Both the position numbers and the translations under genes were made by a program. Under the pieces are notes generated by a model that was given only the letters and a program-made list of their open reading frames with translations, made no database searches and had not been told where the DNA came from. DNA of 64,000 nucleotides, taken from contig CAYOML010000004.1 of assembly GCA_964405095.1 (NCBI GenBank), positions 5,080 to 69,079 of the forward strand, read 5' to 3'. This document shows, piece after piece, positions 1-20,174 of this stretch (positions are counted from its first letter, which is position 1; each line of letters opens with the position of its first letter). This DNA comes from an uncultured Candidatus Saccharibacteria bacterium. Lineage in GTDB: Bacteria > Patescibacteriota > Saccharimonadia > Saccharimonadales > EFPC-124.

Positions 1-2800
1 ACATCACTAATGCATTGGCTATAGGTGCACATGCCATAACTGGTACTAACTTCAGCGTGACTGGCGCAGGGGCTGTAACTGCCGTGGGTGTTAATGCCGG
101 TGCTGGCTTGCTGCAAGGCGCCGCGGGCTTGACCGTGAGTGGTGCAACTGCCAGCATTAACACGAGTAGCAACTTTGCCACGAACATCAATACTGGTACG
201 TCAACAGGTACGGTGACAATCGGTGGTGGTAGCTCGCCGCTCGTTATCGATTCCACCAACTTTGATGTCACAAGCGCGGGAGCCGTGAGCGGGGTCACAA
301 CTCTGTCCACAAGCGGTAATATTACCGATGGCGGTGACATAGCGGTCAACGGTGGTGATATAACAAGTACTGGAGCCCTTAATATAACGCCAACTGGAAC
401 GCTGACCGCTGGTTCCACTGGCCGGACCTTGACTTTACAAGGCAATGCCAGCACGACACTTAGCGCCACAGATACTGGCAACACTACTACTCTAAGCTTC
501 CAAGTGCCAACTGCAAACGTAACCTACCGCTTGGCCACCGCAGCTGCCGGCACCTACGACGTCTGTACTACCGTTGGTAACTGCTCGGGTACTGGATCAA
601 CAAATACACTGCAGGCAGCATACGACGCCGGTAACACAATCTTAACAACTGATGGACGAGATATTGCGTTTACACTGGCTAATACCACGACCGACCCTAA
701 CTTCACTATCAACACAGCTACAGGCAGCACCGGGTTTACCTCCATAACTCGGGCTGATGGTGCTGGAACAGCTGACCCGGCTCAACTCTTACTGGTTAAA
801 AATAATGATACTGATCGGGTATTACCAATAGGTATATCAGTTCAAAGCGCTGGCGGTGGCGTAACCACTGCCTTCGACGCTTCGGGGGCTAATATAACTA
901 ATGCACTAGCAGTTGGCGCTAACGCCATAAGTGGAACGAACTTCAGTGTTACTGGTGCCGGGGCTGTAACCGCAGTCGGGGTCAACTCCGGCACTGGCTT
1001 AATCCAGGGTACAGGTGGCTTAACCGTTAGCGGCGCGACTGTAAGCCTGAACGCCAGCAGTAACTTTGCTACAAATATCAATACCGGTACATCAACCGGT
1101 ACCGTTACGATTGGTGGCGGTTCTGCTCCACTAGTGATAGACAGCACCAACTTTGATGTGACTTCGGCTGGGGCTGTCAGTGGTGTTACTACACTCAGCA
1201 CATCAGGCATCGTAACTGTCGGGACCCTAGGTGCTAACACTGGCTCCAGCAGTATCTGTCGCAACTCATCTAACCAGATTTCGACCTGTTCGGGTTCTGG
1301 CGGCATAGACGCCGCAGTGACTCTGCAGAACGCCTACGCTAACGGCAACAGCATCAGCACAACTGACGCTCGTGACGTTAGCCTCACCCTGGCCGACACC
1401 ACCACTGATGGTAACTTTACTATAACCACGGCCACCAACAGTACCGGTTTTACCAGTTTCCTACGTGCTGATGGCGGCGGGACGGCCGACCCAGCTCAAC
1501 TAGTGCTAGTTAAGAACAATGATACTGATCGTGTGCAGCCCCTAGGCATTTCGGTGCAATCGGCTGCGGGTGGTATTACTACGGCCTTCGATGCATCAGG
1601 TGCTAATATCACCAACGCACTAGCGATTGGTGCGCATGCTATAACCGGTACTAACTTTAGCGTCACAGGTGCTGGAGCTGTCACGGCTGTGGGCGTAAAC
1701 GCTGGCGCTGGTTTGTTGCAGGGTGCCTTAGGTTTGACTGTGACTGGCGCGGCTGTCAGTTTGAACGCCAGCAGTAACTTTGCGACGAACATCAATACAG
1801 GTACATCAACAGGTACAGTTACCATCGGCGGCGGTTCTGCTCCATTAGTAATAGATTCGACTAACTTTGACGTCACTTCGGCCGGGGCAGTATCAGGTGT
1901 AACCACTCTTAGTACATCAGGTAATATCACCGATGGCGGAGACATTGCTGTCAACGGCGGTGATATAACTAGCACCGGCGCGCTAAATATAACACCTACA
2001 GGTGCATTAACTGCTGGGTCAGCGGGCCAAACACTGACACTACAAGGCAACGCTTCTACCAGCCTTAGTGCAACCGATAGTGGAAGTACAACCAGTCTTG
2101 TCTTCCAAACACCTACAGCTAACGTTAACTACCGCTTAGCTACTGCCGCGGCCGGAACCTATGACATTTGCACAAGTATCGGTAACTGTTCCGGAGCGGC
2201 TACCACTCTGCAAACAGCCTACGACGCTGGTAATACCATATTAACCACCGATGGTCGCGACATCGGGTTCACTCTGGCCAATACAACCACCGATCCTAAC
2301 TTAACTATCAACACAGTCACAGGCGGTACAGGTTTCACCTCCATAACTCGTGCTGATGGTGCTGGAACAGCTGACCCGGCCCAGCTACTACTTGTCAAAA
2401 ACAACGATACAGACAGAGTGTTGCCAATTGGCGTGTCGGTACAGAGCGCTGGCGGTGGCGTAACAACGGCCTTCGATGCCAGTGGCGCAAATATTACCAA
2501 TGCTTTGGCGATTGGCGCCAATGCTATAACAGGTACCAACTTTAGCGTGACTGGTGCTGGTGCGGTAACAGCTGTGGGTGTCAACTCAGGCACCGGTCTT
2601 ATACAAGGCACCGGTGGTTTAACAATTAGCGGGGCAACTATAAGCTTGAACGCCAGTAGCAACTTCGCCACTAACATCAATACTGGTACATCAACCGGTA
2701 CCGTTACGATTGGCGGCGGTAGTGCACCACTTGTTATCGATTCGACTAATTTTGATGTAACTAGCGCAGGGGCATTGAGTGGGATAACAACCATTTCTAC
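1..2800 (+). repeat. in-frame A/B super-repeat of the giant gene (A1 <1-887, B1 888-1601, A2 1602-2486, B2 2487-~2800)
   Basis: Each unit opens with ANITNALA(I/V)GA(H/N)AI(T/S)GTNFSVTGAGAVTAVGVN. A units carry an extra NITDGGDIAVNGGDITSTGALNITPTG insert. The A1B1 to A2B2 period is about 1.6 kb. More copies may lie upstream. Confidence 0.85.
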
Positions 2801-5800
2801 CAGCAGCACAATCAATTCTCAAACCATTTCTAGCACTGCTAACTTTACTGGTACAGTTACGATCCAGGGTGCAAATGCGTTGACTCTGGGTGTAACCAGT
2901 ACTAGCACTGGCGCAGTCTTATTCAAGGGTTCCACGGCTGCCAGCGGCACACTAACTTTGATTGGCCAGGCCAATCCGACGACTAACACCATCACGCTGC
3001 CGAACGAAACCGGCACAATCTGTACCAGTGCGGCCAGCTCACCCGCTAACTGTACAAACTTTGCCCCGGCAACCGGCAGTACTGTGTATGCAACCAAGGC
3101 CTTGGATAATTTATTGAGTGTAAACATTAACACCGCACTCAGCTTCCAGAACAACCAAACTGCTACCATCAACTTTGCGTCGGCCGCTTCTGCTGGCGGC
3201 AATGCTTTGAACATCACAGGCCAAACAGCTGGTGGTACGGCCAACAACGGTGGAGCCATCACCATCCAAGCTGGTACGGCAACAACTACGGGAACAGGTG
3301 GATTACTCACCCTTAGCGGTGGCTTGCCCACGGCCACGGGCGTAGATGGCAGTGTCAGTCTAGATACTGGCCATGTCTTTGGCGCTACAGCCGGTACGAT
3401 AGACATCGGTAATGGCGCTTGGGGCCACACTGTTAACATTGCCACTAGCGGCGCTGCCCTTCAGACCATAGCTATTGGTAGTAATGGTAACTCTGGCGAT
3501 ACTGTCACCATCGAAGGTGGCACTAGTGGCTATACTATTTTCATAGGCAATGGCAACAGCGACCACGGCATCAAGATTGGCACTGGTACCGGTACGCAGA
3601 CTGTCATTGTCGGTTCAACCTCTGGCTCGAGCGGATCCGCCATGCAAGGCGGTACAGGTGGGGTGAGCCTCACCACCGGTGGCAGCTTGGTAGCCAATAC
3701 CGGAGCCATAAACTTAACGACTGGCGATCAAAATGGTACCTCGCTAAACTCAGGCTCTATAACTATACGCACAGGTGACAACGGCGGCACCGACAACAGT
3801 TCTGGATCAATTAATCTTCAGACCGGCTTTAAGAGTGGTACTGGTGTCGTCGGTGCCATTAACCTCAACACCACTAACAACGGTGCAATTAATACTGGTA
3901 CCGGCTTGATGACGGTCGGTGGTGCCTTGACAGTCAACGGAGTAGGTACCTTCAATACTGACGTTGACTTCACTCTGGCCGGAACTGAGAATGTAGCTGT
4001 CACCCACGACCTAGCTGGCACAATAAACGTTTTTGCTATCACTGGCACACCTAATGCGTCAGCTAACACTGCCAATGGGCTGTACATAGACCAAGTCAAC
4101 TCAGCCAACACTAACGGCTTTGACTCTGCGATAGTAATCAACAACTCCGATACCAATTTAGTAATTGGTAACGGCATTCTGTTTAGCAGCAGTGGTGGTG
4201 GCTTTACCAATTTCATCGACACACCAAGCTCGGTCTTCAAAGTCGACGGTTCGGGTAACACTACAGTTGCCGACCTGATCTGTAGTTCGGCGTCATGTAT
4301 TTCGACCGGTGAAATCACCGACGGTACTATTACTGGTGACGACGTAAACTCCAACATAGCCGGCCTGGGCTTAGTAAAAAATACAGCTACCACACCAGAT
4401 TCACTCGATGTCGACTTACTTGGCAGCCAGGACGGATCGGGCAGCACCTTTAGCTTCTCGGGTTTGGAATTCCAGGGTGCAAGCAGCGACACACTAACCT
4501 TGCTGCAAGGCTGTTCGGATAACCAAATCCTTAAGTGGGACGATGAAACCGGTGGCAACGGTCGCTGGGACTGCGCGGCGGATAATGGCGGTTCTATGAT
4601 TGTCCGCGAATCGGACGGCTCACCTTCTGTAAGCTCAGTTTCAACACTCGAGTTTGGTCCAGCCTCAACTTCTAGTGAAGAGTTCATTGTTACAGACCAA
4701 ACTGGCGGTGTGGCTCGGGTAGTCATTGGCACCATGGTTGGCAAGCTTAACGAGGCCGAATCGGTCACAGGCGGTTGGACGTTTGGCACCGGTGCCACGG
4801 TCTTTAACAGTCTAGCCACCTTCAACACCGATGTTGATATGATCTTCGGTGGCACCGAAAATCTCGCCGTAACATCAGACTTAGCGGGAACAGTGAACGT
4901 CGCGTCAATCATTGGGACACCATCAGCATCGGCTGGCACAACCGCTGGTCTGTTCATCCAGCAGGCCGCCAGTGCTAATACTAACGGCATCGATAGCGGT
5001 ATCGTGATTGATAATGCCGACACCGACTTAGCGCTGGCCACCGCCATAGAAATAACCAATACAGGTGCGTTCGCAACGGGTATCACCAAGGGTATCGACT
5101 TCAATGCAACAGGTATCGTAACGGACATTGAGCTACAAAATGGCGAACAGGTAGATAACAACACCGACGACCTGATAACCCTAACTGGTACTGGCGGTAC
5201 TAACAACGAAACACTGGTCATCGACCTCGACTCAGTTGGTGCTTCGGGTGTTACCTTATCTTCTGGCGGTACCCACGTGCTTGTTAACGATAACTTATCC
5301 GTTGGTATTGACGGTGCGACAACCGAAAATATATCTTACGCGGGCTTTGCCTTCTCTGGTAACGACCTTTACACAGACGATATGTTAGGCGTAAATGGTA
5401 ATGCCTTTATAGATGGGACATTGTCGGTATTGGGTACATCCACCTTTGACGGCTTGGCCACCTTCAACACAGACGTCGACATGACCTTTGCCGGCACAGA
5501 AAACCAGGCAATAACCTCTGACCTCGCTGGCACTGTCAACGTCTTAAGTATCATCGGCACACCATCGGCATCGGCTGGCACAACCCGCGGTATCTTTATC
5601 CAACAAGCAGCTTCAGCTAGCACCAACGGTATAGACAGCGGCATAGTAATAGACAACGCTGATACCGACCTGGCCCTGGCCACGGCTATTGAAATCACCA
5701 ATTCCGGGGCATTCGCAACCGGTATCACCAAGGGTATCGACTTTAATACCACTGGAATAGTTACGGATATTGAGCTACAAAACGCCGAACAGATAGATAA

Positions 5801-8800
5801 CAACACCGATGACAACGTAACCTTTACAGGCACCGGTGGTACTAATAACGAAACATTTACTATTGACCTTGATTCTGTAGGCTCATCTGGCGCAACCTTA
5901 TCTTCTGGTGGCACATTCGTGTTGGTTAACGATAACTTGTCAGTTGGTATTGACGGTGCCACAACCGAAAACATCTCCACTGCTGGCTTTGCCTTCAGCG
6001 GTAACGACTTGTACGTCGACGATATGTTTGGCGTTAACGGCAACACCTTCCTAGACGGCACAGTCAACTTCGGTGCTATGATAACTGACGCTAACGCTGT
6101 ACTGTATACCGACACTAATGGATTAGTAACCAGGGTAGTCGAGACCGAGACCGGTTCACAGTGTCTGCTTTCAGGTGCTGGTGCTAGTGGCATACCGGTG
6201 TGGGGCTCATGTGCAGGCGGTTCCTCACCGTTCACCTCTGACGGCACGACGATAACTAAGACTACAATCGGTGATGTCCTTAGCCTGCGCTACGGCGACG
6301 CGGCTGACACACAGCTGACTATCGAGAACACTACAAACAACGTTATACCAACCAGCGATGCGGCGGTGATAGATCTATCTGGCAATACCACAGGCATTAT
6401 AACCGACGGTGTTGACGGGCTGTACATACATACAGAGTTCGGTGATGAAGGCAGCACCACTACCACTTCGGCTCTGCACTTAGACGTCGACCCTGTGGCT
6501 ATCACAACTTCGGGTGACAACTTCTATGCTCTTAACATTGACGGGTTAAGTGCCACCAGCGCGACCGAATATGCCATCAATATCGGCAGCAACTGGGATC
6601 AAGCCATAGTCGCCAACGGCAAAGTTAGCATCGGCAGTAGCGTCGGTACCTCACAGCTATATGTCTTAGGAGCTTCGGGCTTGGGTGCCACGGACGGTCT
6701 GATAGTAAGGGGCGGTGACGCGACCGGTGATACTGCCCAGGGTGGCGAGGGGCTTAAAGCTACCGGCGGTGATGGCGCTGATATAGGCGCGGGCATAACC
6801 CCTGGCCTGGGCGGTATTATTGAGTTGATTGGTGGGATTGGTGGAGCCGGCGACTTAACCAATGACGCCGCAGCTGGCGGCGGCATATCTATAACAGGTG
6901 GCGCTGGCGGTAATGCGGCGGGCGCAAACGCCGGCAACGGTGGCAATGTTGTCATTACCGGTGGCGCGTCAGGTACTGGAGGCAGTGCTACGGCGGGGAG
7001 TGTAATCATCAGTGGTGGTACGGGTACTGGCACAGGCCAGGGCGTGGTAATAGTTAGACCGAACTCAGATGCCAGCAACATATTCCAGGTACAAACCAAC
7101 GGTACTACAGCAATCTTTACTGCCGACACCGAAACAGCCGTCGATCCGCTTAAGATTAAGATTGGTGACACTTCAACAGCTAACGCGCCTGTTCTGTTAG
7201 TGCTCGACCAAGAAGATGCTGACCCGACCGGCGTGACTGGAGCGATGTACTTCCAAACTGGTAGCAACACGTTCCGCTGTTACACAACCAGCTGGGGTGC
7301 CTGTGCGGGCAGTGGCAGCGCGCCACGACTCGACCAAATAACTGCCGCTACCACCAACGGATCAGCTCAGAACAGCGCCAACTTCACCATCGAGTGGGAC
7401 TGGAACTCGTTGACTACCCAACGTGGGTTGACCATGAACTCTACGGCTACCGGCTTAACTACGGGTGGTCTGTTGGCCTTGGGTAGCACGTCCAGTACTT
7501 ACAACCATGCTAACGGTGAGACTGGCAGCTTGTTCACACTTGGTGTGAAAGATGGTACGACAACGTCTGGTGCGGTCACGTCAACGACTAATGCGTTAAG
7601 CATATCTGCAACCCTGGCAGCCACAACCAGCACCTCTGGGGTTAAGACGCTCAATGCGATTAACGCCAACGCTCCGACCTTTACTTCCTGTAGCGGCGGC
7701 GGTACTTGTGTGTACAACGCTTTCCTAGGCACACTGACTGCGCCAGCCGCCGGCATCACTACCGTCAATGGCATTAACATAGTTGGTGCCGCTAACACCG
7801 TTGCTGCAACAACGCAGAGCCTGATCTTCCTTGATCCAGCTGCCTCGGGCAACTCAAACGGTACGTTGGTTGGGCTAAATATCGACTCTATTACCACTGG
7901 AGGTGTAGCGACCGAATACGGCATAAATGTCGGCAGTGGCTGGGACCAGGCGATCGTAGCTGACGGCAAGGTCAGCATTGGCAGCACAATTGGCACTGCC
8001 CAGTTAAGAGTAACGGGTGCGAATGGCTCAAGCTCGGCAGGCACTGACGGCATAGTGGTTGTTTCTGGAAACGGCTCGGGAGCTTCTAGCTTCGACGGTG
8101 GCGCCAATACCATTACAAGCGGTACTGGTGCCAGTAACTCTAGTGGTGCTACAACCGCCGGCAAGGGGGGGTTGATAACACTCACGACTGGAACTGGCGG
8201 TGCGACCAGTGGCACTTCTACGGCTGGTGGTGGTGCCGGTGGTGCATTGAGTTTAATTGCTGGCAATGGTGGTGCGGGTAGCACAAGTGCTTCTTTGCCC
8301 GGCGGTACCGGTGGCAGCATCATTATTACCGCAGGTAATGGTGGTGATACTAATGGCACAGCCGCTCAAGGTAATGGTGGATCGATCACCCTAACTGCAG
8401 GTGCAGCTGGCACCATTGTTGATACACCGGGAGTTTCCGGCAACATTAACTTCCTTACCGCTTCTACTGGCCAAGGTTCTGCTGGCTCGGTTATCGCCAA
8501 GTCGGGCATAGATTCGGATACCTTCTTCCAAATTCAGCGCAACTCTGGCGTGGCGATATTAACTGCAGATACCGAATCCACAAACAATCCGCTTAAGATC
8601 CAGATTGGTGACACTTCGACAGCTAACGCGCCTGTCATGTTGGTGCTAGACCAAGAAGATGCCGACCCATCCACTGGTTTGCTCAACGGTATGATGTACT
8701 ACAATACGACCACCAACAAGTTCAAGTGCTATGAGAACACTGGCTGGACAAACTGTATTGGATCAGGTGGCAGTACTACACTGCAACAAGCGTATGATGC

Positions 8801-9770
8801 CGATGCTGACGGCTCCGAAGTAATTATTTCCCTGACAGCAGCCGATGACGGCTTGATTTTCCGCAACCCGTTGACAACTGGTACCAACCTATCAGCATAC
8901 ATACTGACGATCGACCAGCTTGAGACTAGCGGCACAGGCTGTGCCGGTAGCCCAGGTTGTGGTGGCCTATTGATCCAAAGCGTTGGTACCGGCCCCTTGC
9001 TTAAGATTACCGACAACACAAGTGTCGCCAGAGACGTACTGACCATAGCCGACGGTGGAGCAACTACCTTCCGTAACCAGAGCGACAGCACCGCAGCGTT
9101 CAAGATCATGACAGCAGCAGGCACCGATGTCTTCAACGTCGACACTAGCAACTCCAAGTTCATACTCGGCACCAGTACCAATGGCATGGTATTCGATACC
9201 GATGCCGGCACCGGACCGACATATGTGGGTACTGGCCGCCCAACCAAGCGCATAACACTAGTGCCAGAATACCCTGGAGCAGTACTATCTGGCGACAGTG
9301 ACGGCAGCAACACCGGTACTATGACCTCAGACTTCTGCTCGAACAGTGCATTACTCAACATTAACTCCGCAGCCGCCTGTGCGACGTCTGGTGATCAGCA
9401 CAACTACTACACCTGGGTTACAACATCCGGAAACGACTACGATATATACATTACCTACAGAATGCCAAGCGACTTCGACGGGTTTACTTCCAGCACATCT
9501 ATTCAAATGTATGCTTGGCGTACAGACAGCACGGCTACAACAGAAGTAAAACTCGCGCTATTTGAGGGTGCTACAGAGTGTGGCACTGGATCGACCACAA
9601 ACATTGCGACTGGCACAGCTACATGGACGGAAAATCCACCAGGGGGAGACGAATCGGCTTGTTCGGGTATAGTCGCCAACGACATTGTAACCTGGAGAAT
9701 CAACATGGAAGCTAACAACAAGACCGTTCGCGCTGGCGAAATCCGCTTTGATTACTATAGTAAGTTCTAG
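1..9770 (+). CDS. giant repetitive surface/fibre-like protein (C-terminal >3,251 aa; true start upstream of window)
   Basis: One open frame runs from nt 3 to the TAG at 9768-9770. The codons before the listed TTG(15) read ITNA and continue the internal ANITNALAIGAHAITG repeat, so the gene begins outside the window. The protein is Gly/Thr/Ser/Ala/Asn-rich, has three internal repeat families, and ends in a unique C-terminal region of about 330 aa. Confidence 0.85.
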   Translation, partial: ITNALAIGAHAITGTNFSVTGAGAVTAVGVNAGAGLLQGAAGLTVSGATASINTSSNFATNINTGTSTGTVTIGGGSSPLVIDSTNFDVTSAGAVSGVTTLSTSGNITDGGDIAVNGGDITSTGALNITPTGTLTAGSTGRTLTLQGNASTTLSATDTGNTTTLSFQVPTANVTYRLATAAAGTYDVCTTVGNCSGTGSTNTLQAAYDAGNTILTTDGRDIAFTLANTTTDPNFTINTATGSTGFTSITRADGAGTADPAQLLLVKNNDTDRVLPIGISVQSAGGGVTTAFDASGANITNALAVGANAISGTNFSVTGAGAVTAVGVNSGTGLIQGTGGLTVSGATVSLNASSNFATNINTGTSTGTVTIGGGSAPLVIDSTNFDVTSAGAVSGVTTLSTSGIVTVGTLGANTGSSSICRNSSNQISTCSGSGGIDAAVTLQNAYANGNSISTTDARDVSLTLADTTTDGNFTITTATNSTGFTSFLRADGGGTADPAQLVLVKNNDTDRVQPLGISVQSAAGGITTAFDASGANITNALAIGAHAITGTNFSVTGAGAVTAVGVNAGAGLLQGALGLTVTGAAVSLNASSNFATNINTGTSTGTVTIGGGSAPLVIDSTNFDVTSAGAVSGVTTLSTSGNITDGGDIAVNGGDITSTGALNITPTGALTAGSAGQTLTLQGNASTSLSATDSGSTTSLVFQTPTANVNYRLATAAAGTYDICTSIGNCSGAATTLQTAYDAGNTILTTDGRDIGFTLANTTTDPNLTINTVTGGTGFTSITRADGAGTADPAQLLLVKNNDTDRVLPIGVSVQSAGGGVTTAFDASGANITNALAIGANAITGTNFSVTGAGAVTAVGVNSGTGLIQGTGGLTISGATISLNASSNFATNINTGTSTGTVTIGGGSAPLVIDSTNFDVTSAGALSGITTISTSSTINSQTISSTANFTGTVTIQGANALTLGVTSTSTGAVLFKGSTAASGTLTLIGQANPTTNTITLPNETGTICTSAASSPANCTNFAPATGSTVYATKALDNLLSVNINTALSFQNNQTATINFASAASAGGNALNITGQTAGGTANNGGAITIQAGTATTTGTGGLLTLSGGLPTATGVDGSVSLDTGHVFGATAGTIDIGNGAWGHTVNIATSGAALQTIAIGSNGNSGDTVTIEGGTSGYTIFIGNGNSDHGIKIGTGTGTQTVIVGSTSGSSGSAMQGGTGGVSLTTGGSLVANTGAINLTTGDQNGTSLNSGSITIRTGDNGGTDNSSGSINLQTGFKSGTGVVGAINLNTTNNGAINTGTGLMTVGGALTVNGVGTFNTDVDFTLAGTENVAVTHDLAGTINVFAITGTPNASANTANGLYIDQVNSANTNGFDSAIVINNSDTNLVIGNGILFSSSGGGFTNFIDTPSSVFKVDGSGNTTVADLICSSASCISTGEITDGTITGDDVNSNIAGLGLVKNTATTPDSLDVDLLGSQDGSGSTFSFSGLEFQGASSDTLTLLQGCSDNQILKWDDETGGNGRWDCAADNGGSMIVRESDGSPSVSSVSTLEFGPASTSSEEFIVTDQTGGVARVVIGTMVGKLNEAESVTGGWTFGTGATVFNSLATFNTDVDMIFGGTENLAVTSDLAGTVNVASIIGTPSASAGTTAGLFIQQAASANTNGIDSGIVIDNADTDLALATAIEITNTGAFATGITKGIDFNATGIVTDIELQNGEQVDNNTDDLITLTGTGGTNNETLVIDLDSVGASGVTLSSGGTHVLVNDNLSVGIDGATTENISYAGFAFSGNDLYTDDMLGVNGNAFIDGTLSVLGTSTFDGLATFNTDVDMTFAGTENQAITSDLAGTVNVLSIIGTPSASAGTTRGIFIQQAASASTNGIDSGIVIDNADTDLALATAIEITNSGAFATGITKGIDFNTTGIVTDIELQNAEQIDNNTDDNVTFTGTGGTNNETFTIDLDSVGSSGATLSSGGTFVLVNDNLSVGIDGATTENISTAGFAFSGNDLYVDDMFGVNGNTFLDGTVNFGAMITDANAVLYTDTNGLVTRVVETETGSQCLLSGAGASGIPVWGSCAGGSSPFTSDGTTITKTTIGDVLSLRYGDAADTQLTIENTTNNVIPTSDAAVIDLSGNTTGIITDGVDGLYIHTEFGDEGSTTTTSALHLDVDPVAITTSGDNFYALNIDGLSATSATEYAINIGSNWDQAIVANGKVSIGSSVGTSQLYVLGASGLGATDGLIVRGGDATGDTAQGGEGLKATGGDGADIGAGITPGLGGIIELIGGIGGAGDLTNDAAAGGGISITGGAGGNAAGANAGNGGNVVITGGASGTGGSATAGSVIISGGTGTGTGQGVVIVRPNSDASNIFQVQTNGTTAIFTADTETAVDPLKIKIGDTSTANAPVLLVLDQEDADPTGVTGAMYFQTGSNTFRCYTTSWGACAGSGSAPRLDQITAATTNGSAQNSANFTIEWDWNSLTTQRGLTMNSTATGLTTGGLLALGSTSSTYNHANGETGSLFTLGVKDGTTTSGAVTSTTNALSISATLAATTSTSGVKTLNAINANAPTFTSCSGGGTCVYNAFLGTLTAPAAGITTVNGINIVGAANTVAATTQSLIFLDPAASGNSNGTLVGLNIDSITTGGVATEYGINVGSGWDQAIVADGKVSIGSTIGTAQLRVTGANGSSSAGTDGIVVVSGNGSGASSFDGGANTITSGTGASNSSGATTAGKGGLITLTTGTGGATSGTSTAGGGAGGALSLIAGNGGAGSTSASLPGGTGGSIIITAGNGGDTNGTAAQGNGGSITLTAGAAGTIVDTPGVSGNINFLTASTGQGSAGSVIAKSGIDSDTFFQIQRNSGVAILTADTESTNNPLKIQIGDTSTANAPVMLVLDQEDADPSTGLLNGMMYYNTTTNKFKCYENTGWTNCIGSGGSTTLQQAYDADADGSEVIISLTAADDGLIFRNPLTTGTNLSAYILTIDQLETSGTGCAGSPGCGGLLIQSVGTGPLLKITDNTSVARDVLTIADGGATTFRNQSDSTAAFKIMTAAGTDVFNVDTSNSKFILGTSTNGMVFDTDAGTGPTYVGTGRPTKRITLVPEYPGAVLSGDSDGSNTGTMTSDFCSNSALLNINSAAACATSGDQHNYYTWVTTSGNDYDIYITYRMPSDFDGFTSSTSIQMYAWRTDSTATTEVKLALFEGATECGTGSTTNIATGTATWTENPPGGDESACSGIVANDIVTWRINMEANNKTVRAGEIRFDYYSKF
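3948..6065 (+). repeat. TFNTDVD...GTEN module: one degenerate copy (3948-~4200) plus two tandem 642-nt (214-codon) copies (4815-5456, 5457-~6065)
   Basis: ATFNTDVDM(I/T)F(G/A)GTEN...DLAGTVNV.SIIGTPSASAGTT.G.FIQQAAS...GIDFN.TGIVTDIELQN...VGIDGATTENIS is repeated almost residue for residue. The offset 5457-4815 equals 642 nt. Confidence 0.85.
6567..8756 (+). repeat. two distant homologous modules (6567-7304 and 7914-8756) of the giant gene
   Basis: Both start EY(A/G)IN(I/V)GS.WDQAIVA(N/D)GKVSIGS and contain a Gly-rich low-complexity core. Both end ...PLKI.IGDTSTANAPV.LVLDQEDADP...Y(F/Y)(Q/N)T...(F)(R/K)CY...W..C. Confidence 0.8.
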
Positions 9771-9788
9771 GATGATTAGGGTATAGGA

Positions 9789-12074
9789 ATGCTCAAACTC
9801 CCAAAACACAAGCGCCAACTGCGTATCAGAATTTTGCGCGAGCTCCTACTTTGGCTATTAATTTTGCCTGCGGCATTCGCCGTTACCTGGGTTGGCACGT
9901 ATTACACAAACAACAAAGTTTTGGCGGATTCCTTCACCATCGACGACTTGGGCAACTTGTATTATGCCGACACCACTAACGCCGGGGTTATGCGCGTTAA
10001 CGAACTTACCAATACTACACCAGTCTTTGCTGGACAATTTAACGGTATCAGTGGTTCAGCAAGCAACATAGTTTGGATACAAGCTCAATCAGCACCCACC
10101 CGGGAAGAACAAATGATTGGGAGTTTGCGTGTTAATGGCGAGCTGCAAATAGAATCATGCACAACTGACTGCAATGCAAACGGCGATTACACTAACCAAT
10201 GGGCAAACGCCGGTACCACAGCCACACAAGATTGTGATGCCGCCCCAGGCTCTGGCACCTGCGTGAGAGCGTTTGATATAGCTTATGAACAACTAAAAGG
10301 CAGGGCATTTGTGGCTTATGCAGACAGCGCAGCCGATAAGTTTTACTATGCCCTGTGGGACAACTCTGCTTGGTCGCCGGATTCCTCGCCTGCCTCGCCG
10401 AGTACTACAAACGAGGTAGACTTTGACACTGGCGGCACTGGTGGAACACCACATTGGATACGTGCGGTCGCACAAGGAGAAGACTTCGACACAACCAGGA
10501 CTAACAGAGTAATGGTTCTAGTGTCAGACAGCAACGAAGACCTGTGGGCTTGTTATTGGGACGGGGTTTCCTTTAGTTGCACATCATCGGCGCTCGAAAC
10601 AATCCTGCAAAACTGCACGTTCGGCCAATGTTTCGACGGAGCTTGGCAAGATGAGAACACTTTCATTGCTGTTTATTATGATACCGGCGCATCAACCCTG
10701 CGTTACCAAAAGTATACTGTGGGTACTGGGTGGAGCGGCGAGCTAACTACCCCCACACCAGTTAGCCTGAGCTCGGCTGGGCTTTGGGTTACTGCCCTCC
10801 ATGCCGCGGGAAGCACCAGAGTACTCGTCACAACCACGGAGAGCGGTGACGACACAAGAATGACAGTCTGGCGAGCTGATAACTCCACCGATGGTTGGAC
10901 AACCTGCGCAATCACCGACTGCCCTGATACTGGAACCGAGACTGCGGGTGCCCCCCAGTCCGCCGTTGGCTGGTCGAGATTAGCTGGTACAGGTTTACAA
11001 ATGTATAACGACTCAGCTAACGGGGGCGACCCAGTAGACTATTCAAAATATACACCAACCAGTACATGGGCTGCTGTGGCCAGCACTGCTACCTCTGGAA
11101 GTGATGATGGGCTAAGCATGCGGGCCAGAAGCGAACCAGGTAATAATTCTATCGTCAATATGAAAACAGATGTCGACTGTGACTTATACTTCTCTTTCTG
11201 GACCGGCAACGCCTGGAACGGAACAGCAGCCGATTTGAGTACGGCCCTCTCGAATTATGGAGTCACGTGCCCAGAGCAAGGCACCCCGGCAGGCGGCCTA
11301 GGTATAAACTACGATTTTGCCTGGAACTATCTTAAGATATGGCAGCGTAACTGGCGGTTTTATAACGGCACCGACACAGCCTCAGTCCCAACCACAGCCT
11401 TGGCAGGCGAGAACATGCGACCGACAGGCTTCAACCGTACTAACGGAGTATTCAGATTACGCATGAATTATGGCGAACTCAGCCATACAAATGGCAGCTC
11501 AGACGACAGAAGAAAACTGCAATATACTACCGATTGTAGCCCTAACGTAGCGTTAGAATCCACCTGCACATGGACAGACGTCGACAACACTGGCGGTGCG
11601 GGTATCTGGCGCTACAAGGACATAACCTGCACACCTACAGATTGCGCCGACAACACAAAATTAACTGCCTCCTCAGGCCTAACTGGCACCGACGTTAACT
11701 GCGCTGGTGGTGATGGTTGTGGCACTTGGATAATGAGCAAAGACTCTGCCACAAAAACCAATATGGACCTGAACGGCACTGTAGGTGGCGATTTGATTCA
11801 AGAAAGTGAATGGGTAGTCGAAGCTAACGGCGCAACTGCCGGCAAAGTATACTATTTTAGAATGTACGATGTAACTTACTCTATCCCCTACTACCGCCAA
11901 CAGGATTCTTTAGCTTGTACCAACAACAATACCGTTGGAGGTAATAGTTGTACCTATCCCTCTCTGGTCACAGATGGCATCAATGCCCCTTCGAGTACCG
12001 ATGACTTTATGCGTCATGGCAACTGGTTTAGTGGCGGCGCCGAACAGAACTTCTTCTTCTGGGCAGACTATTAA
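9789..12074 (+). CDS. hypothetical membrane-anchored extracytoplasmic protein with six blade-like repeats (beta-propeller-like), Cys/Trp-rich
   Basis: The ATG lies 19 nt after the giant gene's stop. The N-terminal hydrophobic helix is LLLWLLILPAAFAVTWVG. Six recurring segments have the form hydrophobic strand-D/S...aromatic...W, for example FVAYADSAADKFYYALWDNSAWS, VMVLVSDSNEDLWACYWDGVSFS and SIVNMKTDVDCDLYFSFWTGNAWN. I recognise no family. Confidence 0.7.
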   Translation: MLKLPKHKRQLRIRILRELLLWLLILPAAFAVTWVGTYYTNNKVLADSFTIDDLGNLYYADTTNAGVMRVNELTNTTPVFAGQFNGISGSASNIVWIQAQSAPTREEQMIGSLRVNGELQIESCTTDCNANGDYTNQWANAGTTATQDCDAAPGSGTCVRAFDIAYEQLKGRAFVAYADSAADKFYYALWDNSAWSPDSSPASPSTTNEVDFDTGGTGGTPHWIRAVAQGEDFDTTRTNRVMVLVSDSNEDLWACYWDGVSFSCTSSALETILQNCTFGQCFDGAWQDENTFIAVYYDTGASTLRYQKYTVGTGWSGELTTPTPVSLSSAGLWVTALHAAGSTRVLVTTTESGDDTRMTVWRADNSTDGWTTCAITDCPDTGTETAGAPQSAVGWSRLAGTGLQMYNDSANGGDPVDYSKYTPTSTWAAVASTATSGSDDGLSMRARSEPGNNSIVNMKTDVDCDLYFSFWTGNAWNGTAADLSTALSNYGVTCPEQGTPAGGLGINYDFAWNYLKIWQRNWRFYNGTDTASVPTTALAGENMRPTGFNRTNGVFRLRMNYGELSHTNGSSDDRRKLQYTTDCSPNVALESTCTWTDVDNTGGAGIWRYKDITCTPTDCADNTKLTASSGLTGTDVNCAGGDGCGTWIMSKDSATKTNMDLNGTVGGDLIQESEWVVEANGATAGKVYYFRMYDVTYSIPYYRQQDSLACTNNNTVGGNSCTYPSLVTDGINAPSSTDDFMRHGNWFSGGAEQNFFFWADY

Positions 12075-12913
12075 AGATTCCTCAGTTGGGCTGCAAACGG
12101 GTTGAGTTTTTCCTTAGCCTTTTGTAATACCAGCTTGATTGATGGGTAATTAGCGTCCCAAAAATTATTGCGGTTAGCTAGAATTGCCTTTTGAGCCTGA
12201 AGAATCGCTGTAATATAGGCACCCCTCTCGTAACCGTGAATAGCGTTTTCATTTGCCGCTTCAGCGTAAATTGACCTGGCTTTTTGTACATCCTCAACCT
12301 GACTTATAACAATATCCAGCGAGTCATCCTTAACCCTTGGTGCAGCCTTAAGACGACTTAGTGTTTTGTCTATACCAGTTGCAGCAGCCTGAAGATTAGA
12401 TTTAACCAACTCGGCTTTGTCGCTGTTGGTATCTTCGGCAGGGTTGTATTCCAGCAGATTTCCAAGAGCCAACATAACGTTACGATGGTAAACGATAAAC
12501 CCCTCGGCACTATTAACTGCATCCATCGCCTGATTAACGGCTGGAGCGTAATCTTTGCCTTTAACAATATTGTTATAATCGACAATTTTCTTCTCTTGCC
12601 ATAACTGAATCGTGGGTTTTGCTTCTTCCGGTCGGGCAACGTTAAAAACTGGTACTGCAGCCTCTACATCTCGAATATAAGTCCTTAATGAGCCGTTAGT
12701 CTGTAGCGCAATCTTGGTTACGGGTATTGCAGCTAACTGCGCTTGGCCGTTGTCTATAGCTTTAATAATTGCCCCTACGCTGTCTGTCTGCCGATCAATA
12801 GTGCTGAGCGCTTGCTGTTTGGGGGATAGCACCAAAAAGTATAGGGCCGAACCTGCGATGGCCAAACTCACGGCGATTCTTATGAACCACAAAATTGCCT
12901 GTCTCATTAACAC
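12071..12913 (-). CDS. hypothetical N-terminally membrane-anchored protein
   Basis: A 280-aa ORF with an N-terminal TM helix (AILWFIRIAVSLAIAGSALYFLVL). The rest looks helical and soluble. Its stop overlaps the stop of the convergent 761-aa gene (shared TTAA at 12071-12074). Confidence 0.6.
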   Translation of the reverse strand: MLMRQAILWFIRIAVSLAIAGSALYFLVLSPKQQALSTIDRQTDSVGAIIKAIDNGQAQLAAIPVTKIALQTNGSLRTYIRDVEAAVPVFNVARPEEAKPTIQLWQEKKIVDYNNIVKGKDYAPAVNQAMDAVNSAEGFIVYHRNVMLALGNLLEYNPAEDTNSDKAELVKSNLQAAATGIDKTLSRLKAAPRVKDDSLDIVISQVEDVQKARSIYAEAANENAIHGYERGAYITAILQAQKAILANRNNFWDANYPSIKLVLQKAKEKLNPFAAQLRNL

Positions 12914-13111
12914 TACTATACAGAAAAGTAGGCTGCTAAGTTGCTTGCTGGGCGTAAACTATATAAACTAGTAACAGTATAAACGAGGGGCAAGGATATT
13001 GACTTTACACCTGGGCGCTCGCCGTATCGGGTAACCAACACACCCCAGAGGCCAGCGCCGGCAGCACCAGCGCCAGTTCAACCCCGTCCGGTAACGCCGG
13101 CACCTGTTTCG

Positions 13112-13546
13112 GTGACTCCTAAGCCCATGCTAAAAAAAGATAAACCTGGTTTTGTCCGCTTCTTACAGCGTAAGTGGTGGCTGATACTAATAGTTGTAGT
13201 ACTTCTTGGTATAACTGGGTACTTTGGCTACAAATACTATACCGAGCGCAGTAAGCCAGGCGTGCAGGGTGCGCAGACCAGCCAACAAATGGCGGCAACA
13301 CCCAAAGAACTCGTCGATGAAATCAGTAAGTTTATTGTTTTGCCAAATGAAGAGCCTCAGGTTGCCACAATCAGTAACGTAGACATATTAAAGGGCGGTG
13401 ACGGAAGTGAATTCTTTAAAAACGCCCAAAACGGCGATGCCGTGCTGATTTTTACAAAGGCTGGGCGTGGGCTTTTGTACCGACCATCGACCCACAAAAT
13501 TATCGAATATACTAAAATTGTCTTTAAAGGCAACTTAACGCAGTAA
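13112..13546 (+). CDS. small membrane-anchored hypothetical protein (paralog of 50695-51132)
   Basis: GTG at 13112 or ATG at 13127. TM helix WWLILIVVVLLGITGYFGY. The C-terminal FFKNAQNGDAVLIFTKAGRGLLYR matches FFGKAQNGDYILIYTKAKLALLYR in the 50.7-kb gene. Confidence 0.65.
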   Translation: MTPKPMLKKDKPGFVRFLQRKWWLILIVVVLLGITGYFGYKYYTERSKPGVQGAQTSQQMAATPKELVDEISKFIVLPNEEPQVATISNVDILKGGDGSEFFKNAQNGDAVLIFTKAGRGLLYRPSTHKIIEYTKIVFKGNLTQ

Positions 13547-13810
13547 CTAACCAGGTTTTTCGGGGTTGGACTCGGCCAAACGATCAATCTTCTGTGCTAA
13601 AGCGTAATCTTTTTCCGTGACTTTACCAGCCGAATGAGTCGTTAACCAAATCTCGACGGTATCGTACGAATTTTTCCAAACCGGATGGTGATTCATTGTC
13701 TCGGCCTCAGCAGCCACCGAAACCATAAAGCCAAAGGCGTGCACAAAGTCTTTAAATACGAATTTGCGGTAAATTGAATCGGCTTCAGGTTTCCAGTTGG
13801 CATTTTCCAT
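13547..13810 (-). CDS. pterin-4-alpha-carbinolamine dehydratase (PCD/DCoH family)
   Basis: 87 aa. FKDFVHAFGFMVSVAAEAETMNHHPVWKNSYDTVEIWLTTHSAG carries the family's HHP...W.N.Y..V core and is the typical size. Confidence 0.75.
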   Translation of the reverse strand: MENANWKPEADSIYRKFVFKDFVHAFGFMVSVAAEAETMNHHPVWKNSYDTVEIWLTTHSAGKVTEKDYALAQKIDRLAESNPEKPG

Positions 13811-13835
13811 ATAGCTAAGGTAAAAAGTTTTAACT

Positions 13836-13912
13836 TGGTACCAGGGGTGGGTATCGAACCCACGACCTCGGGCTTATGAGTCCCGCGCTCTAACCGTCTG
13901 AGCTACCCTGGC
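13836..13912 (-). tRNA. tRNA with anticodon CAT (elongator Met or Ile2/lysidine type)
   Basis: The reverse complement reads GCCAGGG-TA-GCTC-AGACGGTTA-GAGC...CTCATAA...GTGGG-TTCGATA-CCCAC-CCCTGGT-A-CCA. It forms a cloverleaf with encoded CCA and a G1:U72 pair. Confidence 0.85.
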
Positions 13913-14045
13913 TTGTTTACAGATTGCAATTGTAGCAAAAAAAGCCGCATCTGAACAGGGGCGGGGCAAACTTGCACCGCTACCTGAATTACAGTAGACT
14001 AACACTTAGCACTAGCATAACTAGATGGAGGGAGTGAGGCTTTTT

Positions 14046-14540
14046 ATGGATCCAAAGAACAACCAAATGCCGAGTGGGGCACCGCAGCCAACTGCACCGC
14101 GCTTTTCTGGTGGCAAATCAGGGGGATTGAATATGAATCGCAATAGAAAAATGATGTTCGGCGTTGTCGCCGTATTAGTAATTGTACTAGCCGTAGTCGG
14201 TTTCTTTGCCTGGAAGCAGATGAGCGGCGCTAGCGGCGCGCTCAAGGGCGGCCAGTACCAGGCTCTGTTTTTGACCAACGGCCAGGTATACTTTGGCAAA
14301 CTATCTAACGTCGACGACAAATACGTCCGCTTGACCGACATTTACTACCTGCAGGTACAGCAAAATGTCCAACCAGCCGACACCAAGGCCCAACCACAGG
14401 TTAGTCTGGCTAAACTAGGGAGCGAGCTACACGGCCCAGAAGACCAAATGGAAGTTAACCGTGACCAAGTTTTGTTCTGGGAAAACCTCAAGAACGATGG
14501 CAAGGTCGTAAAGGCTATCCAAGAGAACCAAAAGAAATAG
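14046..14540 (+). CDS. hypothetical membrane-anchored protein
   Basis: The ATG at 14046 is preceded by GGAGGGA (14027-14033). An alternative ATG lies at 14025. TM helix MMFGVVAVLVIVLAVVGFFAW. I recognise no family. Confidence 0.6.
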   Translation: MDPKNNQMPSGAPQPTAPRFSGGKSGGLNMNRNRKMMFGVVAVLVIVLAVVGFFAWKQMSGASGALKGGQYQALFLTNGQVYFGKLSNVDDKYVRLTDIYYLQVQQNVQPADTKAQPQVSLAKLGSELHGPEDQMEVNRDQVLFWENLKNDGKVVKAIQENQKK

Positions 14541-14556
14541 TCTGTAAACAAAATTT

Positions 14557-14587
14557 AAAAAACCGCTCACACCTCGGGCGGTTTTTT
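14557..14587. terminator. bidirectional Rho-independent terminator between convergent genes
   Basis: AAAAAACCGCTC-acacctc-GGGCGGTTTTTT: a GC stem flanked by an A-run and a T-run. It overlaps the stop of the ATPase gene. Confidence 0.7.
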
Positions 14588-17306
14588 AAACCCCGGGTTT
14601 TGCCGGCAGATCGCCGTATTCGGGGCCAAACTTATCGAACAATGGATTGAGGAGCTTCATTACCCCAAATAACCCCAACATGCCAGCGAGTATTACTAAC
14701 CAGTCTAGGCCGCTAATTGGTGTGACTTTAAAGAGGTTCGCCAGTGGTGGCAGGTACACAATGGCCAGTTGTATGCCAATCGAAACCAGCAGGCTTAATG
14801 TAATTAGTGGGTTAGACCACCACTTCATGCCGTAGTCGCTGCGAATGTCGGCCAGGCGCACAAATTCGTAAAGAACCATGGCGATAAACACCACCGAACT
14901 AGCTGCGGCAGCACCTTGGCTGCCGACAATAGCCGAATAGTGCCAAAGAATCAGCAGACTCATCAGCCCACCAAACACAAATATTTCCAGCCAGACACGC
15001 CTGTTTATTATGGATTGTTGGTAGTGGTGTGGTTTTAGCTTCATGACATCTTTGGCAGTCGGGTCATTACCCAGAGCAATGGCCGGCAAACCGTCGGTGA
15101 CAATGTTTATAAACAATATCTGAGCGGCAGTTAGTAATAGGTTTTGGTGTATAAGAACACCCAGCAAAATAGTTATGACTTCGGCGATGTTGCAAGATAG
15201 TAAGAAATTAACAAATTTACGAACGTTGTCGAAGATACCGCGCCCCTCTTCGATAGCATTGATGATAGTTAGGAATTGATCATCCAACAAAATCATATCG
15301 CTGGCTTCTTTGGCAGCGTCGGTGCCTGTTATGCCCATGGCAATACCTATATCGGCGGCTTTGATGGCCGGGGCATCGTTGACGCCGTCACCGGTCATCG
15401 CCACTTGGTGGCCATGGTACTTTAGGGCGCGAATTATGCGCATTTTATGTTCGGGATTGACTCGCGCGTAAACGCCTATACTTTCGACGCGGGCCGCAAA
15501 AGCATCATCGTCCAAATCATCTAACTCTATGCCAGTAAACGCTTCGCCGATTATACCGACTTCGCGGGCTACGGCTTTGGCAGTTTCGACATTGTCGCCG
15601 GTAATCATAATCACTCGCATGCCGGCTTCGGTCTGTACCCGCTCGATAACCTCTTTTACTTCGACCCGTGGCGGGTCCATCATGGCTTGCAGCCCAACAA
15701 AGATGAGTTTTTCCTCCATCGATTCTTCACCAGGTTTTTCATCGAACGTGCGGTACGCAAAACCCAATACCCTGAGGGCTTTGGCTGCCATTGCATCGTT
15801 ACGGGCCATTATTTGGCGCTTGGCCTCGACTGTCAGCGCAACCTCTTTGCCGCGCTGTAACAATTTATCGCAGTGCCCCAGTAACACATCTGGTGCTCCC
15901 TTTACTGCAACCATGTAACCATTACCAGATTCATGCAGCGTGCTCATCATTTTGCGGGCAGAGCTAAAAGGAACTTCGTTGACGCGCGTGTATTTATTGT
16001 CGACTCTTGCACGCACTAGGCCGACCTTGGCCGCCGACACTATCAAACAACCTTCTGTCGGATCGCCAAGCACTTGGTCGTCTTTGAGCCGCGAATTGTT
16101 GCATAGCAATCCAATGGTTAATAGCTGAGTGATATCGGCCGAGGCAGCGACTGTTTTTTGGTTGAGGGTCAACTTGCCCGTCGTACCATAACCCGAACCG
16201 GCGAGTTCATAGGCATCGTTACCAGCAAATAATTCGCGAACTGTCATTTCGCCAGCGGTTAATGTACCGGTTTTGTCGGAGCAAATAACGTCGGTCGATC
16301 CCAAAGATTCGACGGCGGCTAAGCGGCGAACCAACGCGTTCTTGGCGGCCATTCGCCGGGCGCCAAGCGCCAGACTAATCCGCACCACAAACGCCAACCC
16401 CTCTGGTATAGCCGCTACAGCTAGGGCGACAGCGGCTGTAAAGGCCAACAGTATTTTTTGGGTCATATTGGCCCCAGCCAGGTCGTGATCGAGAAATAAA
16501 ATCGCGACAAACATGGCAGCACAAATCACCAAGATGACCAAACCAAGCTTACGCCCAAGATCGTCGAGTTTGCGCTGCATAGGTGTTTGTTCTGATTCGA
16601 CCGAGCTCACCAGGTGAGCAATATGGCCAATTTCGGTTTCGGCGCCAGTGGCCACCACAATACCTTCGGCAGTACCGGTGGTTACAAGTGTACCAGAGAA
16701 CAGCATGTTGTTTTGGTCGGCTAGTGCCAAGTTGCCAGTTAGCGGCTCGATCGTCTTATTAACCGGCAGCGACTCCCCTGTTAGGCTGGCCTCGTTGGCC
16801 TGCAGGTGGTTGGCCTGCAGAATACGGATGTCGGCCGGGATTTTTTTGCCTTCTTCCAGGAGTACGATGTCGCCTGGTACTAATTCTTCGCTGGGTACTT
16901 CCAGCACCTCACCGCCGCGCCTCACCCGACAGGTTTGAGCGACTAGCTTTCTAAGAGCATCAACTGTTTTCTCGGCTTTATACTCATTGAAAAAACCAAC
17001 AATGGCGATGGCAACCACGCTGGAATATATCAGCAGCGCCTCGGTTGGTATCGCGTCGTGCTCGATAAAACTAACACCCAGCGATAGCGTCGCGGCGACT
17101 ACCAACACCATAATCAACACATCTTTAAACTGCGATAACAACAACTTAAATGCCGATAATTTTGGGCCAGACGGCAACTGATTAAGCCCGAATTTAGCGC
17201 GGCGTTGTTCGACCTGGCTAGCCATTAAACCAACATCGGTCCGAGCACCCAACGTGTCGGCCACAGTCTGGCCACTTTGACTATAGAAGCTGTTTGTTTT
17301 TGACAT
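14586..17306 (-). CDS. cation-transporting P-type ATPase (type II, Ca2+/SERCA-PMCA-like)
   Basis: 906 aa. It has the phosphorylation motif ICSDKTGTLT, the hinge MTGDGVNDAPAIKAADIGIAMG, TGES (LTGESLP), and about 10 TM segments. Confidence 0.9.
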   Translation of the reverse strand: MSKTNSFYSQSGQTVADTLGARTDVGLMASQVEQRRAKFGLNQLPSGPKLSAFKLLLSQFKDVLIMVLVVAATLSLGVSFIEHDAIPTEALLIYSSVVAIAIVGFFNEYKAEKTVDALRKLVAQTCRVRRGGEVLEVPSEELVPGDIVLLEEGKKIPADIRILQANHLQANEASLTGESLPVNKTIEPLTGNLALADQNNMLFSGTLVTTGTAEGIVVATGAETEIGHIAHLVSSVESEQTPMQRKLDDLGRKLGLVILVICAAMFVAILFLDHDLAGANMTQKILLAFTAAVALAVAAIPEGLAFVVRISLALGARRMAAKNALVRRLAAVESLGSTDVICSDKTGTLTAGEMTVRELFAGNDAYELAGSGYGTTGKLTLNQKTVAASADITQLLTIGLLCNNSRLKDDQVLGDPTEGCLIVSAAKVGLVRARVDNKYTRVNEVPFSSARKMMSTLHESGNGYMVAVKGAPDVLLGHCDKLLQRGKEVALTVEAKRQIMARNDAMAAKALRVLGFAYRTFDEKPGEESMEEKLIFVGLQAMMDPPRVEVKEVIERVQTEAGMRVIMITGDNVETAKAVAREVGIIGEAFTGIELDDLDDDAFAARVESIGVYARVNPEHKMRIIRALKYHGHQVAMTGDGVNDAPAIKAADIGIAMGITGTDAAKEASDMILLDDQFLTIINAIEEGRGIFDNVRKFVNFLLSCNIAEVITILLGVLIHQNLLLTAAQILFINIVTDGLPAIALGNDPTAKDVMKLKPHHYQQSIINRRVWLEIFVFGGLMSLLILWHYSAIVGSQGAAAASSVVFIAMVLYEFVRLADIRSDYGMKWWSNPLITLSLLVSIGIQLAIVYLPPLANLFKVTPISGLDWLVILAGMLGLFGVMKLLNPLFDKFGPEYGDLPAKPGV

Positions 17307-17383
17307 AATCTGTTACTACGTGTTATACACTATAGTAAACACAAGCGTCAAACAGTGTAAAACAAAAATAAGTAGAAACGCGC

Positions 17384-18377: not shown

Positions 18378-18388
18378 AGGAAAAAGAA

Positions 18389-19762: not shown

Positions 19763-19778
19763 CCGATTTGCTCGCGAA

Positions 19779-19863: not shown

Positions 19864-19908
19864 TTTGCTACCCTGCCGCTATTTTCGTAAACGAGTTACA
19901 ATTAGCGC

Positions 19909-20166: not shown

Positions 20167-20174
20167 GACTTTCG

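Follow-up and report, generated by a model that had tools for sequence, protein, structure and literature searches.

The left end of the window, a 64,000-nucleotide stretch from an uncultured Candidatus Saccharibacteria bacterium (Saccharimonadales; contig CAYOML010000004.1, positions 5,080 to 69,079, forward strand), carries the 3′ part of a giant gene whose tandem modules encode nearly the same protein in strongly different DNA. It is likely that this array arose by ancient internal duplications, that its copies ceased to be homogenized at the DNA level, and that silent sites then drifted to near-saturation under purifying selection that was of housekeeping grade on every copy. The open reading frame (ORF), delimited from an ORF list and its translation, spans positions 3-9770 of the forward strand and comprises 3,255 codons plus a stop at 9770. 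Codons start at positions divisible by 3, and the 5′ end of the gene lies beyond the left edge of the window.

Repeat families and protein alignments defined the units of the array, all on the forward strand. Unit A1 (3-893, 297 aa) has an A-specific middle part, which separates an N-module of 104 aa from a C-module of approximately 96 aa. It is followed by unit B1 (894-1607, 238 aa), in which the N- and C-modules flank a short Cys-containing linker, and by unit A2 (1608-2492, 295 aa), identified by alignment as the protein-level twin of A1. The last unit, B2, was recognized by protein alignment and is represented by its N-module only (first 104 codons, 2493-2804). The N-module is thus common to A1, B1, A2, and B2, with 94 of its 104 residues invariant across the four copies. 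A-type and B-type units also share the C-module, and differ in the middle part. The repeat ends 3′ of the B2 N-module, where the sequence is 72-73% identical to single-copy segments of the Saccharimonadia L006, L008, and L009. A further tandem pair, C1 and C2 (4803-6086, forward strand), shows the same pattern and is less old.

The divergence of these units was confined largely to silent positions. Over 295 codons, A1 and A2 were 90.2% identical in amino acids, 74.2% in nucleotides, and 40.7% at third codon positions. The proportion of synonymous differences (pS) was 0.74, the number of nonsynonymous substitutions per site (dN) was 0.083, and the number of synonymous substitutions per site (dS) was approximately 2, yielding a dN/dS ratio (ω) of approximately 0.03-0.05. 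The dS value was estimated using a simple simulation of the identical-codon fraction, in which the fraction of 0.40 corresponded to a dS of about 2 (range 1.5-3). B1 and B2 were 93% identical in amino acids and 74.5% in nucleotides; B1 was 76% identical in amino acids to A1 and A2, with a pS of 0.71-0.78. Nucleotide identity among units was 72-78%. C1 (4803-5444) and C2 (5445-6086) had an amino-acid identity of 82-84%, a pS of 0.70, and a dN of 0.146, and their identical-codon fraction of 0.51, against 0.39 expected, corresponded to a dS of approximately 1.1. Indeed, a preliminary description of positions 1-2800 had drawn attention to the scrambled wobble positions of A1 and A2 and to a 642-nt tandem of like pattern, and both were borne out. 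The stretch it had quoted, 264-326 in A1 and 1869-1931 in A2, encodes DVTSAGAVSGVTTLSTSGNIT in both units, with 15 of 21 codons different, four AGY↔TCN serine switches, and 63% nucleotide identity. This stretch is, however, the most extreme part of the alignment rather than a representative one: over the whole of A1 and A2, 7 of the 20 conserved serines switch codon family, and 5 of these 7 lie in residues 77-104 of the N-module.

An exact-match search revealed how little uninterrupted identity is left. The longest exact direct repeat in the 9.8 kb of the gene is 29 nt and occurs in two instances, one at 753-781 and 2352-2380, the other, between B1 and B2, at 1086-1114 and 2685-2713 (forward strand). 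Raised codon identity between A1 and A2 is confined to a single tract, A1 684-780, with 20 of 27 codons (74%) identical, and the first repeat lies inside it.

The age of the units and the constraint on them were calibrated against ordinary genes of the same window. In L159, L161, and L160, the nearest relatives sampled, syntenic orthologues had pS values of 0.60-0.83 and were thus already near silent saturation. One of these genes encodes aspartyl-tRNA synthetase (AspRS; 44702-46012, reverse strand; 85% identity to 'Candidatus Saccharimonas sp.'). Its comparison with the nearest relatives yielded an amino-acid identity of 90-92%, a dN of 0.049-0.065, and an identical-codon fraction of 0.54-0.58, equivalent to a dS of about 1. 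The relatives at 92% and 90% are represented by Logan SRR26290502 and ENA ERZ1759591, respectively. At a like protein identity, the identical-codon fraction of A1 and A2 was only 0.40, and this pair is therefore older than those species splits. Other neighbouring genes had dN values of 0.09-0.9 in the same comparisons. Judged by these sequence measures, A1 and A2 are at least as constrained as AspRS, and the dN of 0.08-0.14 found among units translates into the ω given above, a value matching that of AspRS when this genome is compared with its nearest relatives. The other internal repeats of the giant gene had similar pS values (0.67-0.83) but a dN of 0.4-0.9. Thus, the A/B units are distinctive through low dN, not through high dS.

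Two other arrays replicated the pattern. The first, L080, is metagenome contig Ga0097621_100000001 (632 kb), which contains a giant ORF of >5,159 aa with at least 10 A/B units. The order of its 10 units is A′-A-B-A-A-B-B+-B′-B-partial, as compared to A-B-A-B(partial) in the window. Unit 7 (12497-13456) carries an extra partial N-module and is 320 aa long instead of 238, so duplications are not bound to the borders of whole units. Unit number and order thus vary between lineages and, together with a syntenic giant gene in L158 that contains no A/B units, indicate gain and loss of units; the L158 gene shares the C-terminal domain and, lacking the units, was rejected as an orthologue of the array. 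The genes flanking the L080 array, encoding ATP synthase subunits, had no counterpart in the window. The AspRS of L080 was not among the 120 best AspRS matches, all of which had at least 70% identity, which may point to a distant relationship with the window organism. Scans of GTDB genomes yielded no relative closer than an 82% module match, and no same-species genome carrying the array was found in the GTDB and metagenome scans.

Silent divergence within a genome was as high as that between the two genomes. Whole-unit pS was 0.74 in the window, 0.74 in L080, and 0.78 between them; the corresponding values were 0.083, 0.140, and 0.143 for dN, and 0.90, 0.874, and 0.871 for amino-acid identity of the N-module. 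The excess of identical codons over the random expectation was 0.10 in the window, 0.07 in L080, and 0.056 between them. Across the 14 units of both genomes, 68 of the 104 N-module positions were invariant, and the variable positions used 2-4 similar residues. Lineage-wide differences between window and L080 were limited to 3 of approximately 200 positions, a weak signal: A22 versus G22 and T90 versus S90 in the N-module, and A versus S at position 95 of the C-module. Outgroup modules suggest that G22 is the derived state, acquired in L080.

The second array belongs to a more distant organism (L020; JAGORL010000003.1, Patescibacteria Gw_Eff_bin_264), in which a giant ORF of >6,508 aa (1121-20644) contains the same N-module. 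Its repeats of approximately 255 aa are 90-98% identical as protein, with dS values from 0.45 upward, so ω could be measured at unsaturated silent sites: it was 0.02-0.07 in most of the least-diverged pairs, with a median of 0.10 over the 271 pairs with dS < 1.5. In this array, tracts of 233-248 nt match exactly while the DNA around them is approximately 15% diverged, a clear footprint of patchy gene conversion. Against shuffled sequences, exact runs were longer than expected in 23 of the 33 pairs, and no pair had shorter ones. Taken together, silent divergence in the module family varies continuously while ω stays low throughout, and DNA identity is not avoided. Accordingly, the preliminary description's proposal of very old duplications under intense purifying selection is upheld by near-saturated silent sites in all comparisons among the A/B units (within the window, within L080, and between the two), and the related giant genes of L080 and L020 share the property of conserved protein and diverged silent sites.

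The units of the window have not evolved wholly as blocks. Four-taxon informative sites delimited a mosaic segment in the 3′ third of the A1 N-module (residues 77-104; 231-314, forward strand). In this segment, A1 groups with B2 (2721-2804) and B1 (1122-1205) with A2 (1836-1919), whereas in the 5′ two-thirds of the module A1 groups with A2 and B1 with B2. All 11 sites that support the split A1A2|B1B2 fall within the first 219 nt of the module. Of the 19 sites that support A1B2|B1A2, 12 lie beyond nt 225. Fisher's test gave P = 0.0006 when the cut was chosen post hoc and P = 0.007 when it was placed at 150. Serine-family patterns in the segment were ATTA three times and TAAT once. Because the segment is mosaic, the four serine switches of the quoted stretch mostly represent one old haplotype difference and not four recent, independent events.

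The switches themselves may have proceeded through threonine. The two codon sets of serine can be exchanged by single substitutions through Thr codons (TCN↔ACN↔AGY). Outgroup modules have Thr at serine positions 77, 84, and 104, and at position 90 the window has Thr (ACN) where L080 has Ser, encoded by both TCN and AGY. These residues are consistent with a route through a tolerated Thr intermediate at particular positions. At serines 18 and 56, all 14 units use AGY codons.

The mosaic bears on slow concerted evolution, in which the protein similarity is due mainly to occasional gene conversion or unequal exchange and silent differences rebuild between events, in line with the Sharp and Li view of polyubiquitin. 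This explanation is unlikely, although it accounts for several observations besides the mosaic: the derived lineage-wide residues at three positions, the A1/A2 tract with 74% identical codons, the patchy homogenization in L020, and a dN between A1 and A2 of 0.083 that lies below the 0.12-0.16 found between genomes for A-type units. Moreover, long exact runs exceeded column-shuffled expectations in 2 of 6 and 7 of 44 within-genome pairs as compared to 3 of 40 between-genome pairs. Nevertheless, conversion at a rate sufficient to keep the protein 90% identical would also keep silent sites far from saturation, and silent similarity within genomes was barely above that between them. The A-type units of L080 were further from each other (dN 0.17-0.19) than from those of the window (0.12-0.16). 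In a neighbour-joining tree, units of both genomes are intermingled (W1 with L4, W3 with L9), although W2 and W4 fall together and the tree depends on few differing sites in a mosaic module; units of L008 and L009 pair across genomes. Finally, the low ω of L020 was measured directly at unsaturated dS.

Loss of recombination could also have been favoured at the level of lineages. Lineages of these reduced-genome epibionts with silently diverged stalk modules, 'frozen periscopes', would have been favoured since such an array can neither shrink nor expand. We regard this as distinctly unlikely; if true, recombination-proofing would be a lineage-level selected property without visible excess scrambling inside the gene.

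Still less probable is natural codon scrambling within the gene, the preliminary description's second proposal, whereby silent differences were selected so that the array cannot recombine or slip. The end state fits, inasmuch as no exact repeat in the 9.8 kb exceeds 29 nt and no pair with dS < 0.45 occurred in any array examined, and in engineered repeats, diversified codons are known to prevent recombination (PMC12365220, PMC13642069). The statistics do not. At sites with the same residue, A1 and A2 had 107 identical codons out of 266, as compared to 88-92 expected from a random synonymous draw (P of the observed value being at least that expected, 0.005), and C1 and C2 had 91 as compared to 71. 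Indeed, identical-codon counts exceeded the random expectation in every pair tested. Similarly, exact runs were significantly shorter than those of random synonymous recodings in 0 of 30 pairs and shorter than those of column shuffles in 0 of 90, and several were longer. The longest A1/A2 match, 29 nt, was well above the median of 14 nt that recoding yields (P = 0.007). L020 tolerates its exact tracts of 233-248 nt, and dS among the A/B units (pS 0.70-0.78) is not raised relative to the other internal repeats, an outcome that the preliminary description had itself named as refuting its reading. Since ordinary orthologues in the nearest relatives are already near saturation, time alone explains the scrambling, and a bias of short-read assembly would by itself be expected to leave young pairs missing. 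Every test run thus counts against selected scrambling, which is unneeded and may at most have had a historical role.

The resemblance to deliberate scrambling has a simpler source. The array shares the nearly flat codon usage of the window's other genes, with a G+C content at third positions of approximately 0.5; because usage is almost flat genome-wide, saturation looks like design. Array-specific codon usage was thus ruled out. Compositional bias was rejected as the basis of the protein identity, since 90% over 295 residues far exceeds such an effect. A diversity-generating retroelement or similar targeted mutagenesis was likewise discarded, as the changes are silent and spread across all four bases.

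With respect to the assembly, Logan contig L001 (SRR9179563), assembled independently, matches window positions 2691-13892 with 100% identity. As it starts at 2691, within the array, independent support for the region of the preliminary description is limited to its last 110 nt (2691-2800). The start of L001 falls inside the B2 copy of the second 29-nt repeat (2685-2713). The assembly graph probably branched within the array, and further copies may lie upstream of the window. An artefact, either a chimera of reads from several organisms or the assembly of an unrepresentative, scrambled part only, is nevertheless hardly credible: although the source is a metagenome assembly, positions 1-2690 lack this support, and assemblers fail on DNA-identical repeats, the reading frame is intact across 3,255 codons, unit order and junctions are regular, codon usage does not differ from that elsewhere in the contig, the same architecture and statistics recur in two further contigs that were assembled independently, and a chimera would require that several genus-level relatives co-occurred in one sample and were joined precisely in frame.

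Based on the abovementioned results, the favoured history of the array would be as follows. Internal duplications would have occurred long ago in a giant fibre protein of the Saccharimonadales, and the copies would then have escaped DNA-level homogenization. Drift would have brought silent sites close to saturation, with a dS of about 2 for A1/A2, and each copy would have remained under purifying selection as strong as that on a housekeeping enzyme (ω of about 0.03-0.05). Approximately two-thirds of module positions are frozen and the rest toggle among 2-3 conservative residues (I/V, S/T, A/S, A/T, and I/L), and serine codons would have changed family through tolerated Thr at particular positions. 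Since its exact matches do not exceed 29 nt, the array should now be a poor substrate for homologous recombination and effectively frozen. Such an inability to recombine would follow from the age of the array and is not evidence of selection for it. Rare exchange of short tracts would have produced the N-module mosaic, the A1/A2 tract at 684-780, and the three lineage-wide residue changes.

Several points weigh against this history. The lineage-wide differences (A22/G22, T90/S90, and A/S at C-module position 95) require homogenization after the split or parallel change. The within-genome excess of codon identity (0.10 and 0.07, versus 0.056 between genomes) and of long exact runs implies that the copies are not strictly independent. 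No duplicate with dS < 0.45 was found in the three arrays, and steady birth-and-death would yield some, although this absence may be an ascertainment effect because short-read assemblies break on DNA-identical repeats. In addition, the distance of L080 from the window organism was gauged from the AspRS match list and not directly, and the 5′ part of the gene, which probably contains further units, lies outside the window. An unlikely alternative for the lineage-wide changes (A22G, T90S) is that all modules co-evolve as protein with a common partner, without any exchange of DNA.

T, G, A, S, N, and V are abundant in the giant protein. Searches of the whole protein against Pfam and NCBIfam and a sequence search of the PDB each returned no match. 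Homologues are present in Saccharimonadales and Patescibacteria, and some carry the NCBI name 'beta strand repeat-containing protein'. Two AlphaFold models (predicted local distance difference test scores of 69 and 77) contained hardly any regular secondary structure, and their comparison with PDB folds matched no solved fold. The giant gene of L080 starts with a membrane-spanning segment; this feature, the names of homologues, and the composition suggest that the protein is probably a fibre located at the cell surface. Sequence identity to L158, L006, and L009 defined a conserved C-terminal domain of approximately 237 aa (9057-9767, forward strand), ending in AGEIRFDYYSKF. Its identity is 50% to the C-terminal end of the 2,592-aa protein encoded by the syntenic gene of L158, and 32-37% to the domain in L006 and L009. 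The protein body is exchanged between lineages, with Kelch-like repeats in L158 where the window has A/B units. The remainder of the gene (3192-3950 and 6684-8717) also consists of old internal repeats, with 30-48% amino-acid identity and a pS of 0.67-0.83, and contains G/T/A-rich segments that recur 3-4 times.

A chain of long antisense ORFs covers the giant gene on the reverse strand (842-9361; e.g., 3818-5221, 467 aa). Sense codons are of the purine-any base-pyrimidine type (78% A+G at position 1 and 67% C+T at position 3), which leaves few stop codons in the antisense frame. The wobble saturation between units speaks against antisense ORFs that are functional, and likewise against RNA structure, as constraints on the units.

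Directly downstream of the giant gene lies a gene of 761 aa (9789-12074, forward strand) that had no family match; a homologue with 53% identity is located directly downstream of the giant gene of L158. It adjoins a convergent ORF of approximately 280 aa (12071-12913, reverse strand), and the position of both is kept in L158. The two may constitute a conserved partner or export pair. Elsewhere in the window, three tRNA genes with a CAT anticodon occur within 15 kb (13836-13912 and 26383-26457, reverse strand; 28659-28734, forward strand), presumably the initiator, elongator Met, and lysidine-modified Ile tRNAs. A 398-aa ORF (43430-44626, reverse strand) matched the Lamin Tail Domain (PF00932, E = 1e-10).

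The pattern observed here has precedents, and the preliminary description's view that it is unusual for a surface array holds only in part. It stands in relation to periscope proteins, whose arrays are defined by high DNA identity that permits intragenic recombination and length variation (PMC8201768). As in these, a large, presumably surface-exposed bacterial protein contains a long array of highly similar modules, with a repetition between neighbouring modules of a kind that is normally disfavoured. However, with DNA approximately 74% identical and a longest match of 29 nt, the recombination mechanism of periscope proteins is unavailable to the array. The view does not hold in relation to polyubiquitin, of which the pattern is the classic one (PMC10457151), or to the module family itself, as both other arrays examined, L080 and L020, share it.

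Polyubiquitin and histones are the subject of a debate between purifying selection with birth-and-death and concerted evolution (Sharp & Li 1987; Nei, Rogozin & Piontkivska 2000; reviewed in PMC10457151). Like polyubiquitin, the array consists of head-to-tail coding repeats that are near-identical as protein and strongly different at silent sites, and the same diagnostic, silent divergence within versus between genomes, applies. The differences are considerable: polyubiquitin is a universal protein of 76-residue repeats with approximately 100% identity, whereas the array has units of 240-300 residues with 82-93% protein identity in an uncharacterized bacterial giant protein. Polyubiquitin repeats are clearly more alike silently within species, and the array units are barely so; nor are the latter known to be cleaved apart.

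A comparable inference has been made for the giant extracellular proteins Giant4a/5a of Apilactobacillus kunkeei, whose high dS and low dN were read as escape from homogenizing recombination combined with strong purifying selection (PMC12863079). Those comparisons concerned alleles or paralogous genes between strains (dS 0.8-1.3) and not modules of one gene, in unrelated proteins of another phylum. More generally, protein repeats, once fixed, are conserved for long under dN/dS < 1, and divergence among repeats within a protein is typically accelerated, under relaxed or positive selection (Persi, Wolf & Koonin 2016; PMC5120217). The array agrees with the former, as individual fixed repeats were conserved over long spans, and departs from the latter, as its inter-repeat divergence is as constrained as that of an aminoacyl-tRNA synthetase. 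Engineered codon scrambling likewise combines the same protein repeats with dissimilar DNA that is stable against recombination (PMC12365220, PMC13642069), but such designs minimize shared DNA, whereas the natural array shows no minimization beyond random.

The array thus represents a known evolutionary pattern, well replicated, in a new and uncharacterized module family of the Patescibacteria. It provides a practical warning that flat codon usage makes saturated silent sites resemble designed scrambling, and metagenome assemblies are biased towards such arrays since DNA-identical ones fail to assemble. As silent sites are near saturation, DNA homogenization is not doing the work, and the array is a clean bacterial case of tandem modules kept approximately 90% identical through purifying selection alone. 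This runs counter to two pictures: that of bacterial surface arrays homogenized at the DNA level and that of intra-protein repeats diverging under relaxed selection. It implies a sequence-specific job for each module of 240-300 residues, possibly a binding surface or an obligatory inter-module contact in the fibre, and marks a widespread, uncharacterized module of the Patescibacteria as functionally important.

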